A DNA stretch of 40,933 bases. It comes from a virus. Lineage: Duplodnaviria; Heunggongvirae; Uroviricota; Caudoviricetes. A program made the position numbers and the translations under genes. The stretch lies in IMG/VR virus record IMGVR_UViG_2563366852_000006, positions 1 through 40,933 of that record. One strand, 5' to 3'. The notes beneath the pieces are model-generated. The model was not told the origin of the DNA. It searched no databases and saw only the letters and a list, made by a program, of their open reading frames with translations. This document shows positions 14,789-16,406 of this stretch, piece after piece; within the stretch, counting starts at the first letter, position 1, and each line of letters starts with the position of its first letter.

Positions 14789-14799
14789 GGCTTAATAAT
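14771..14799. terminator. Perfect 29-bp palindromic hairpin between the convergent Q gene and the minus-strand cassette
   Basis: ATTATTAAGCCC-CTGTA-GGGCTTAATAAT overlaps the stops of both convergent genes. Confidence 0.5.
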
Positions 14800-15376
14800 T
14801 CATATGAATTCTGTTTCCGAGATAATATAATCCAAAGAAAGTTGATACTAAGAGTTGCCAAACGAGGAAAGTAAATACAACAGTATAAACCATTAAAACA
14901 ATACTGTTTTGATAGACATTGATTAATGGTGAAAATATAGCATTAAGTATTATTATAACAATGCTTAATGCTGTTAAAAAAGAGAATAGCATGCAAAGAA
15001 ATAATCGTCTGGTCAGAACCTCCTCTGAATTTACTACTTTTCCATTTTCTTTTGTTACTTTTATTTCAATAGAGGCATTTCTTTCATTGCTAATCAATGG
15101 TAAATCAATCTCAGCTCTATTGAAAGTTGCTATGGCGGCCAGAGCGGCAATATAAAACCCTGGTAGGTTAGAGATAAATGAAACGATTGATTTAATGAAA
15201 CCATTGTCATCAAATAAATCTTTGACAGGGATTTTTAATAGAATGAAAAGTACTGCTGTGATAGAAGTAAGTAGAATTGGTGCTACCCAATCATATGCAG
15301 CTTTGCCGCTAATACCTTTAATAAAAAGATATCCAAACGGCTTGCCTAGATGAGAGAAAACTGAAAGTATTGGCAT
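14792..15376 (-). CDS. Small integral membrane protein (about 4 predicted TM helices), second gene of a two-gene cassette
   Basis: 194 aa with four long hydrophobic segments and one hydrophilic loop; GAGGT RBS inside the 3' end of the upstream gene; very AT-rich. Confidence 0.6.
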   Translation of the reverse strand: MPILSVFSHLGKPFGYLFIKGISGKAAYDWVAPILLTSITAVLFILLKIPVKDLFDDNGFIKSIVSFISNLPGFYIAALAAIATFNRAEIDLPLISNERNASIEIKVTKENGKVVNSEEVLTRRLFLCMLFSFLTALSIVIIILNAIFSPLINVYQNSIVLMVYTVVFTFLVWQLLVSTFFGLYYLGNRIHMNY

Positions 15377-15383
15377 AATAACC

Positions 15384-16406
15384 TCACATCAAATCTATCA
15401 TTTTCACAACAAACTCTAGTTCAATTTTAACATATGAATCCTTCAGGCGCGAATTAAAGTTATCGATAATGCTTTTCTTAATAAATGTTTTTTCTAAATT
15501 ATTAAGATTGATGTTTGAGGTTTTGAAATCAACCTGCCTTGGTTTATTTGTTTCAGGATCTTGGAATTTAACCTTTAATTTATCATAACCACCATTCATT
15601 TTTTTATTGAAATGAGATGCTACATTTTTAATCCATCCAATAACATTGTCACCATGATTTGGAAGTAATTTTAATGTACTTTCAGTCGGAATGTAAGGTG
15701 AATTAACATCAGGAGCATTAATTGTTCCGAATTGATCCTTGACTAATATGACATCTGATAATCCTTTTTGGCTTATTTTATTAAAAAGCTCCTTGTCTAA
15801 CATTCCTGTAAATTCAAATATTGGTTTGTATCGTATTTTTACTTCTTTTTTTGATGTTGCAGAAATAACGTTAGTTGGATGTTTTGCGGTAAATAAGTCT
15901 TCATTGTCTTTCGCCACTTCAAAGAGAATTTTGTCTAAAAAACTATTTAACCGGGCCGTAGATACACCTGGGGTAGATGTACAAATCATATCATAGGTTC
16001 TTTTATTTCCATTTAATGATATGACAACATAGGTAGAAACTTCATAGCCTTCACCTTGTTCATATTTTGGTTGGATTTCAACGCGTTCATTAGTATTTAT
16101 ATTTTTTACAACGGTAGTACTTCCATTTTTATCAACACTATTAATAAGAAGGACAATATGCGTGGGTGAGTTATCTGGAAGTAAAGGATAAAGTTGTACA
16201 TCTTGGAGAGTAACTACAATATTCCCAGAATCATATGAATGAACGAGTCCCTTTTGTTTAACAATCAATGGGGCAAGCATGTACATTTCCGGAACAGGAC
16301 ATATACACTGGGCTTTTACCTCTTGTGTTGCCTTGGTTCTAAACTTTGTGTCAATGGTCAGACTATGATGAGTAACGAGTCTTTCGCTAGCATTTAATTT
16401 TGCCAT
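15384..16406 (-). CDS. Hypothetical soluble protein (340 aa), first gene of a two-gene cassette
   Basis: Long uninterrupted AT-rich ORF, 7 bp upstream of the membrane-protein gene on the same strand; no motif recognised. Confidence 0.6.
   Translation of the reverse strand: MAKLNASERLVTHHSLTIDTKFRTKATQEVKAQCICPVPEMYMLAPLIVKQKGLVHSYDSGNIVVTLQDVQLYPLLPDNSPTHIVLLINSVDKNGSTTVVKNINTNERVEIQPKYEQGEGYEVSTYVVISLNGNKRTYDMICTSTPGVSTARLNSFLDKILFEVAKDNEDLFTAKHPTNVISATSKKEVKIRYKPIFEFTGMLDKELFNKISQKGLSDVILVKDQFGTINAPDVNSPYIPTESTLKLLPNHGDNVIGWIKNVASHFNKKMNGGYDKLKVKFQDPETNKPRQVDFKTSNINLNNLEKTFIKKSIIDNFNSRLKDSYVKIELEFVVKMIDLM

Follow-up and report, generated by a model that had tools for sequence, protein, structure and literature searches.

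Two adjoining minus-strand genes, here named A and B, lie between the antiterminator gene Q and the lysis genes of an SfII-like lambdoid prophage, within a stretch of 40,933 nucleotides of Caudoviricetes DNA (IMG/VR record IMGVR_UViG_2563366852_000006, positions 1 to 40,933) that is referred to below as the window. The two genes are probably prophage cargo that encodes an abortive-infection (phage-exclusion) module with two components, of the RexAB type. The evidence for this consists of the membership of both proteins in one family, the fold of protein A, the predicted topology of protein B, the obligate pairing of the genes, their mobile or defence-related contexts and the purifying selection that acts on both. 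Phage defence, and membrane damage triggered by A and dependent on B, have been demonstrated for a Pseudomonas homologue only, RexABpp, and by analogy with it the SfII pair would function in the same way. An original prediction, made from the letters of the window, had proposed a RexA/RexB-type abortive-infection pair as prophage cargo, and this is well supported by the fold of A, the predicted four-transmembrane (4-TM) nature of B and the homology to RexABpp. It had also recognised no family in either protein and regarded the module as undescribed; on both points it has to be revised, since both proteins match the candidate defence system PDC-M53 of PADLOC-DB and PHROGs 9879 and 8257, two families of unknown function, and RexABpp, a member of the same family, was characterised in January 2026 (PMC12894663).

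Relationship to PDC-M53 and to RexABpp of Pseudomonas putida

The PDC systems of PADLOC-DB are 145 putative systems, predicted from the occurrence of some of their members within BREX, DISARM or type I restriction-modification (RM) loci (Payne et al. 2024, bioRxiv). M53 is not individually discussed in that preprint, and a full-text literature search for "PDC-M53" returned no paper, hence no published link to RexAB. The comparison with defence models that had been suggested as a check gave clear matches for both proteins: all five PDC-M53A models match protein A over nearly its full length (2e-32 to 1.5e-12), and PDC-M53B matches protein B across residues 6-193 (1.8e-54). Searches of Pfam and NCBIfam gave nothing meaningful for either protein, and when the family profiles were run against PDB sequences, A had no match and B noise only.

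A characterised relative is RexABpp (PP_5643/PP_5644), encoded by prophage P1 of P. putida and described by Rosendahl et al. (Sci Rep, January 2026, PMC12894663). The authors have shown that phage defence needs both genes, that RexApp binds DNA, and that overexpression of RexApp results in growth arrest and membrane permeabilisation, which depend on the 4-TM protein RexBpp (PP_5644). RexBpp is harmless alone and is activated by RexApp, and cells arrested by RexBpp mostly remain alive. An HHpred match of PP_5643 to RexA, at 98%, has been published in the same study, by whose count only five Rex-like systems have been described so far.

The ends of PP_5643 and PP_5644 were decoded from the cloning primers (Supplementary Table 2 of PMC12894663), so that the comparison covers the termini rather than full-length sequences. 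PP_5643 starts with MHRTATFV and ends in RLMV before the stop, and PP_5644 starts with MLIGQLANP and ends in LYYLGYKLQE before the stop. These termini are identical or near-identical to those of a pair found in a surveyed Pseudomonas locus (L041), in which A starts with MHRTATFVDIK and ends in ALMV, and B starts with MLISQLTKPL and ends in GLYYLGYKLQE. The L041 pair is itself recognised by PADLOC as PDC-M53A (1.5e-149, by the same five models that match SfII A) and PDC-M53B (4.8e-71). The B protein of SfII and the RexBpp-like B of L041 share 38% identity (E 6e-33), and an A profile built from Enterobacterales only matches Pseudomonas A proteins (6e-14 to 9e-9), some of them beginning with MHRTATF. 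Together, the primer-derived termini, the scores of the L041 pair, the identity between the B proteins and the cross-clade matches of the A profile place RexABpp and the SfII cassette in one family, PDC-M53, of which the SfII cassette would be, as judged from sequence relationships, the enterobacterial branch. The equation of PDC-M53 with the RexABpp family and with the SfII genes SfII_50 and SfII_49, as well as the size and taxonomic breadth of this family, seem to be new to the literature searched.

Predicted structures of proteins A and B

The AlphaFold2 (AF2) model of A has a pLDDT score (predicted local distance difference test) of 77 and a predicted template modelling score (pTM) of 0.68. 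It presents the two domains of the RexA/RdgC fold, and among PDB structures it is matched best by RexA; the proteins that it matches are those united as a single DNA-binding fold in the paper on the structure of RexA (PMC11077077). Among viral models, the top four Foldseek matches were phage proteins, full-length and uncharacterised (E 2e-9 to 1.5e-7), and a phage RdgC ranked fifth (E 2e-3). On the basis of its predicted model, A is thus a RexA/RdgC-fold protein. The structural check proposed earlier was informative for A, with RexA as best PDB match, and not for B, for which no viral model was matched at E<1. Protein A belongs to a divergent family, within which identity is typically about 20%: a word-indexed search retrieved 30 relatives, and an exhaustive profile search at least 274 clusters at 50% identity.

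Homologues of B form at least 682 clusters at 90% identity in gamma- and betaproteobacteria. The invariant motifs of this family are LPGFYIAALAAIATFN, TRRxFL, FLTAxS, WQ and GLYYLGxRIH, and the SfII protein carries LPGFYIAALAAIATFN, TRR and GLYYLG. The original description of the pair as a soluble protein of 340 residues followed by a 4-TM protein is borne out by four hydrophobic spans in B (about residues 31-48, 63-85, 125-147 and 158-183) and by an AF2 model (pLDDT 88) with four long helices and a beta-hairpin at residues 102-120. Hydropathy, charge distribution and the AF2 model predict a topology with both the N- and C-termini inside (N-in, C-in), which would place a central loop of 39 residues (86-124), ending in the invariant TRR, on the cytoplasmic side. 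This predicted layout with a conserved central loop parallels that of gp31 of the actinophage Sbash, a described RexB-like effector in which the substitutions R70A and D73A in the central loop abolish defence. The viral model with the highest TM-score to B (0.41/0.46 over the full length, not significant, E 1.9) is a 165-residue protein of the Mycobacterium phage Sbash (BFVD A0A0A7RXT6).

Distribution, genomic context and selection

The genomic distribution of the pair was surveyed in 65 loci, one genome being taken per species. In 60 of these loci the two genes share a strand and A is found immediately upstream of B, abutting or overlapping it; of the remaining five, three fall at contig edges. 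Any other gene is shared by seven of the 65 at most, which indicates that the module is a self-contained pair. The PDC-M53/RexABpp family extends over gamma-, beta- and alphaproteobacteria, and the contexts seen are always prophages, mobile elements or defence islands. The pair occupies the same position, after Q and ahead of the holin gene, in a Klebsiella lambdoid prophage, with hicAB adjoining, in a prophage of Aeromonas, in a P4-like island of Chromobacterium, and in a P2-like prophage of Halomonas, where an Eco29kI RM system adjoins it. When neighbours are pooled, they include RM systems of types I, IIG and III, SspH, AbiQ, SoFic, MADS and a DISARM methylase, together with integrases, resolvases, type IV secretion system genes and genes of Tn7 and Tn3.

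Both genes are under purifying selection, with pN of 0.21-0.25 against pS of 0.63-0.82, and their rate of change at non-synonymous sites is about 2.5 times that of Q next to them (dN 0.27 and 0.24 against 0.11). At the scale of the whole family A is fast-evolving and B strongly conserved, which fits a division of labour between a sensor (A) and an effector (B).

Some individual loci deserve mention. The hicA/hicB toxin-antitoxin pair of the Klebsiella aerogenes prophage (L003, 7900-8562) stands directly beside A-B, and hicAB2 (PP_3899/PP_3900) is the neighbour of rexABpp in P. putida prophage P1, so that the same neighbour occurs in very distant hosts. About 5 kb from A-B in Vibrio coralliilyticus (L010, 1138-4686) lies a Zorya type II-like trio, as judged by precomputed Pfam tags only, composed of a 550-residue protein, an OmpA-like protein of 235 residues and a DUF8245/HNH protein of 393 residues. 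A contig of 2.2 kb (L017) in a metagenome-assembled genome labelled 'Erysipelotrichaceae' carries an enterobacterial-type pair whose B is 65% identical to SfII B; contamination during binning is the most likely explanation, in preference to a member of the family from Firmicutes. Finally, B occurs without a detectable A, and with room upstream for one, in Pinirhizobacter soli (L063, 8917-9926) and in L034 (about 700-1695); in these loci A has either decayed or diverged past the reach of the profile.

The locus in the SfII-like prophage

At 99.7% identity, the region matches Shigella phage SfII, in which both genes are annotated as "hypothetical protein"; the features of the region are listed in Table 1. 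An identical cassette is present in only 9 of 5,426 complete Escherichia coli genomes, annotated always as two hypothetical proteins.

Table 1. Features of the cassette and of its surroundings (positions in the window).
Feature	Position	Strand	Description
Antiterminator Q	14423..14788	+	PF06530 (Pfam 8.7e-45) and SfII annotation; left border of the slot, convergent with B
Perfect palindromic hairpin	14772..14798		Arms of 11 bp (14772-14782 and 14788-14798), loop of 5 nt
Gene B (SfII_49)	14792..15376	-	194 aa, 4-TM inner-membrane protein (predicted); PDC-M53B family; proposed effector
Shine-Dalgarno GAGG of B	15382..15385	-	Overlaps the TGA stop of A (15386-15384), 5 nt before the ATG of B
Gene A (SfII_50)	15384..16406	-	340 aa, soluble; PDC-M53A family, RexA/RdgC fold (predicted); proposed sensor and trigger
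Cassette-specific upstream DNA	16407..16446	-	Ribosome-binding site GGATGA at 16416-16411
Conserved backbone block	16447..16540		Right edge of the slot; 90-98% identical in mEp460 and Stx2 phages
Holin S	16692..17018	+	Open reading frame and SfII annotation; first lysis gene, right-hand context

Much of the layout described in the original prediction could be confirmed. The two linked open reading frames (ORFs) are intact on the minus strand and separated by 7 bp, and the cassette is much more AT-rich than its surroundings, with a GC content of 0.28-0.35 (0.32 for each of the two genes) against 0.50-0.58 in both flanks. The ribosome-binding site of B, said to lie inside A, does overlap the stop codon of A, but its GAGG straddles the end of the gene and is not wholly inside; this overlap suggests translational coupling of the two genes. 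The perfect palindrome noted at the stop of Q is also real, and spans the convergent stops of both Q (14786-14788) and B (14792-14794). Its RNA folds with -17 kcal/mol, with z-scores of -4.9 on the plus strand and -6.5 on the minus strand, and none of 200 shuffled sequences equalled it. The cassette-bearing Klebsiella phage has kept the palindrome, which is probably a terminator or stabiliser, without a U-tract, that serves both convergent transcripts. On the far side, the region 16407-16691 had been described as non-coding, in agreement with the ORF scan, which found no credible ORF there.

Other features of the surroundings were recorded. The longest ORF of Q has a TTG start and 121 codons, and the Q annotated in SfII is shorter (104 aa, window 14477-14788). 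Phages that carry the cassette differ from those that lack it in the last 15 or so codons of Q and in the terminator behind this gene. A further low-GC stretch (0.37-0.46), with small ORFs only, extends from about 17900 to 19900 of the window, downstream of Rz/Rz1; its counterpart in SfII contains a predicted terminator and IS911 remnants.

A cargo slot between Q and the late-operon block

From Q up to position 16509, the cassette included, the Klebsiella prophage is colinear with SfII and 71% identical to it in nucleotides, which indicates that the cassette arrangement is old in this phage lineage. The edges of the slot can be recognised by comparison with other phages. At the left edge, the cassette-free mEp460 and SfIV have an ordinary intrinsic terminator after Q, in a place taken by the palindrome in SfII and the Klebsiella phage. 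At the right edge, homology with other phages resumes at 16447, 40 bp upstream of the ATG of A, with a conserved backbone block that abuts three different leftward cargo genes. In the Shiga-toxin (Stx) phage Stx2a_1447 this block is followed rightward by a methylase gene, the tRNA genes ileZ-argN-argO and stx2AB, and its position ahead of the late and stx2AB genes suggests that it is part of a late-operon control region, probably that of PF06530-type Q proteins. The block is conserved among lambdoid phages with the same Q type, Stx2 phages included, but is absent from the Q-S region of lambda; it corresponds to no Rfam family, and no convincing promoter hexamers could be recognised in it. Read rightward, it contains a terminator-like hairpin at 16518-16539 (terminator scan); read leftward, it has a conserved TACAAT at 16483-16478 (TATAAT in mEp460), which from its sequence may be a candidate -10 element for whichever cargo fills the slot.

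These comparisons refine two proposals of the original prediction. The region 16407-16691 had been taken as the native promoter region of the cassette, and of it only the first 40 bp, to 16446, are specific to the cassette; the segment that follows, 16447-16540, is backbone shared with phages that carry other cargo. The location of the pair at the Stx toxin site was imprecise, as the cassette lies upstream of the block and on the opposite strand, and the stx genes of Stx2a_1447 lie downstream of it. Situated between Q and the presumed target region of Q, the cassette is outside the late transcript and away from the stx position. The slot itself seems to be undescribed in the literature searched.

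Other cargo in the same slot

A different minus-strand pair is located between Q and the conserved block in Stx2a_1447 (L081, 1900-3463) and in SfIV (L015, 1423-2845), consisting of a soluble protein of 343 or 356 residues and a 4-TM protein of 179 residues; in SfIV the small gene is truncated, with IS1 adjoining. The two proteins fall in PHROGs 3482 and 16807, of unknown function, and in no PADLOC family, and the only Pfam match is a sub-threshold one of the small protein to LPG_synthase_TM (E 0.0011). Comparison by hidden Markov models showed no relationship to A or B, with a weak colinear hint to the A family in hhalign (probability 4%, E 0.009). This pair may be another undescribed exclusion pair, borne by a Shiga-toxin phage. 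The same slot of mEp460_4F5 (L002, 2228-3154) holds a lone AT-rich minus-strand gene that starts about 48 bp from the conserved block and encodes a protein of 308 residues; it falls in PHROG 2802 (unknown function) and has no PADLOC or Pfam match.

It is tempting to speculate, although we consider it doubtful, that the slot is a site at which defence cargo is swapped under one shared leftward promoter, that the Stx2a_1447/SfIV pair is a further Rex-like branch with a sensor and a pore, and that Rex types form a large superfamily invisible at the sequence level. If this were true, some members of a Rex-type structural superfamily would be carried by Shiga-toxin phages.

Comparison with other Rex-like and two-gene systems

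RexABpp is the closest system to the SfII pair. Both consist of a soluble gene followed by a 4-TM gene of the same two families, tightly coupled and carried as prophage cargo; the A-type protein has a RexA fold, and the C-terminal GLYYLG motif of B is shared. Identity amounts to about 20% for A and about 38% for B, and host clade and target phages differ, as does the genomic position, RexABpp being located downstream of a cI-like repressor gene, whereas the SfII pair lies on the opposite strand between Q and the late-operon block. PDC-M53, whose A and B models match the SfII proteins directly, is a prediction to which no function had been proposed.

Lambda RexA/RexB shows the same architecture in a lambdoid prophage, with the gene of a cytoplasmic DNA-binding-fold protein just upstream of that of a 4-TM inner-membrane protein, and the same logic is proposed for both systems, namely a sensor that activates a membrane effector and thereby aborts the infection. 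However, no sequence or profile similarity could be detected here between RexA (PF15969) or RexB (PF15968) and SfII A or B. The SfII proteins are also larger (340 against 279 residues for A and RexA, 194 against 144 for B and RexB), B having an additional central loop of about 40 residues with a beta-hairpin, and the rex genes are located in the immunity region of lambda instead of the slot between Q and the late block. Non-specific binding of double-stranded DNA as a dimer has been reported for lambda RexA and its actinophage homologues (PMC11077077) and for RexApp (PMC12894663). The actinophage pairs, gp30/gp31 of Sbash, gp44/gp43 of CarolAnn and gp30/gp31 of Butters, are likewise prophage pairs of a RexA-like soluble protein and a 4-TM protein, and their membrane proteins have the N-in, C-in topology predicted for B, with a functionally important central cytoplasmic loop. 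They differ from the SfII pair in being unrelated in sequence, in their Gram-positive hosts and in having specific phage proteins as known triggers; in Butters the roles are reversed. Kiwa also resembles the SfII pair, with two genes that encode a small 4-TM protein (KwaA) and a soluble protein of about 310 residues (KwaB); identity with Kiwa was rejected, there being no match to PADLOC Kiwa models or to Pfam DUF4868, and the gene order being opposite.

Proposed mechanism and alternative explanations

By analogy with RexABpp, the following sequence of events may be proposed. The pair would be transcribed leftward, independently of the late operon, with coupled translation of the two genes. The cytoplasmic protein A, probably a dimer that clamps DNA, would detect some feature of the infecting phage, most plausibly a DNA-protein intermediate of replication or recombination. 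Activated A would then act on B, presumably by contact, and B would oligomerise or open, so that the integrity or the potential of the membrane would be lost, as overexpression experiments have shown for RexABpp; growth would stop and the infection would be aborted.

Several observations weigh against this interpretation. RexABpp is tied to the SfII pair through primer-decoded termini of about 10 residues; the pairwise alignment of SfII A with the RexApp-like A of L041, at the low identity given above, is not significant. Similarity to the classical Rex proteins was likewise not detected at the profile level: the A profile against lambda RexA gave an hhalign probability of 0.2% with the single sequence and 0.5% with a 29-sequence alignment, A has no Pfam match at E<=1, and neither RexA, RdgC nor any domain of unknown function (DUF) is among the 25 families listed for 106 members of the A family. 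B has no Pfam match to RexB and an hhalign probability of 0.5% to it, and Foldseek gave no significant match of B among viral models. A two-hybrid assay of RexABpp did not reveal an interaction between its two proteins (PMC12894663). Upstream of A, no sigma-70 promoter scores 9/12 or more and the hexamers discernible by eye are weak, expression of the cassette in lysogens being therefore presumptive.

Four other explanations were considered, all of them disfavoured by the distribution of the family and by the polarity of RexABpp. The first, which appears improbable, is that the pair mainly serves its own prophage, with A biasing the switch between lysogeny and lytic growth and exclusion arising as a by-product. 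It draws on the example of lambda RexA, which binds DNA and, independently of RexB, stabilises the lytic state, and the authors of the RexA structure have raised such a role for homologues (PMC11077077). Nevertheless, the SfII pair is far from the immunity region, A almost never occurs without B, and the pair is also found in Tn7-like, conjugative and RM-island contexts, where there is no phage switch to control.

Less likely again is a superinfection exclusion exerted at the membrane, in which B would block the incoming DNA under the regulation of A and no cell suicide would be involved. Small inner-membrane proteins of prophages, such as those of the Sie and Imm types, are comparable to B, and the survival of most RexBpp-arrested cells would agree with such a mode of action; it is difficult to reconcile with the obligate presence of a cytoplasmic partner that has a DNA-binding fold, and with the fact that overexpression of RexApp alone triggers RexBpp toxicity in the absence of any phage (PMC12894663).

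We find it very hard to credit that the cassette serves to stabilise the mobile element as a toxin-antitoxin or addiction module, with B as membrane toxin and A as its antidote. The mobility of the cassette, its make-up of two genes, the potential toxicity of its membrane protein and the hicAB genes that adjoin it in two hosts might be read in this way, but the polarity of RexABpp is the opposite one, B being innocuous until A activates it (PMC12894663), and A is the faster-evolving partner, as would be expected of a sensor. A role in lysis timing, with B acting as a holin- or antiholin-like protein together with the adjacent S-R-Rz genes, has the least to recommend it, since the immediate vicinity of the lysis cassette and the 4-TM nature of B are countered by the position of the pair on the opposite strand, outside the late operon, and by the location of most family members far from lysis genes. 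The RexAB-type abortive-infection module thus remains the preferred interpretation of the SfII cassette.

Significance

This analysis connects two hypothetical genes of SfII, a serotype-converting phage of Shigella, with the orphan candidate system PDC-M53 and with RexABpp, whose function has been validated. The PDC-M53/RexABpp family is widespread, and the SfII pair offers a member that is tractable in E. coli and Shigella for the 70-year-old question of how a Rex-type sensor is triggered, and annotators gain a name for genes of the SfII_50/SfII_49 type. The gap between Q and the late promoter, which is present also in Stx2 phages, is a place in which further exclusion systems may be sought; these could bear on phage therapy and on how Stx phages spread.

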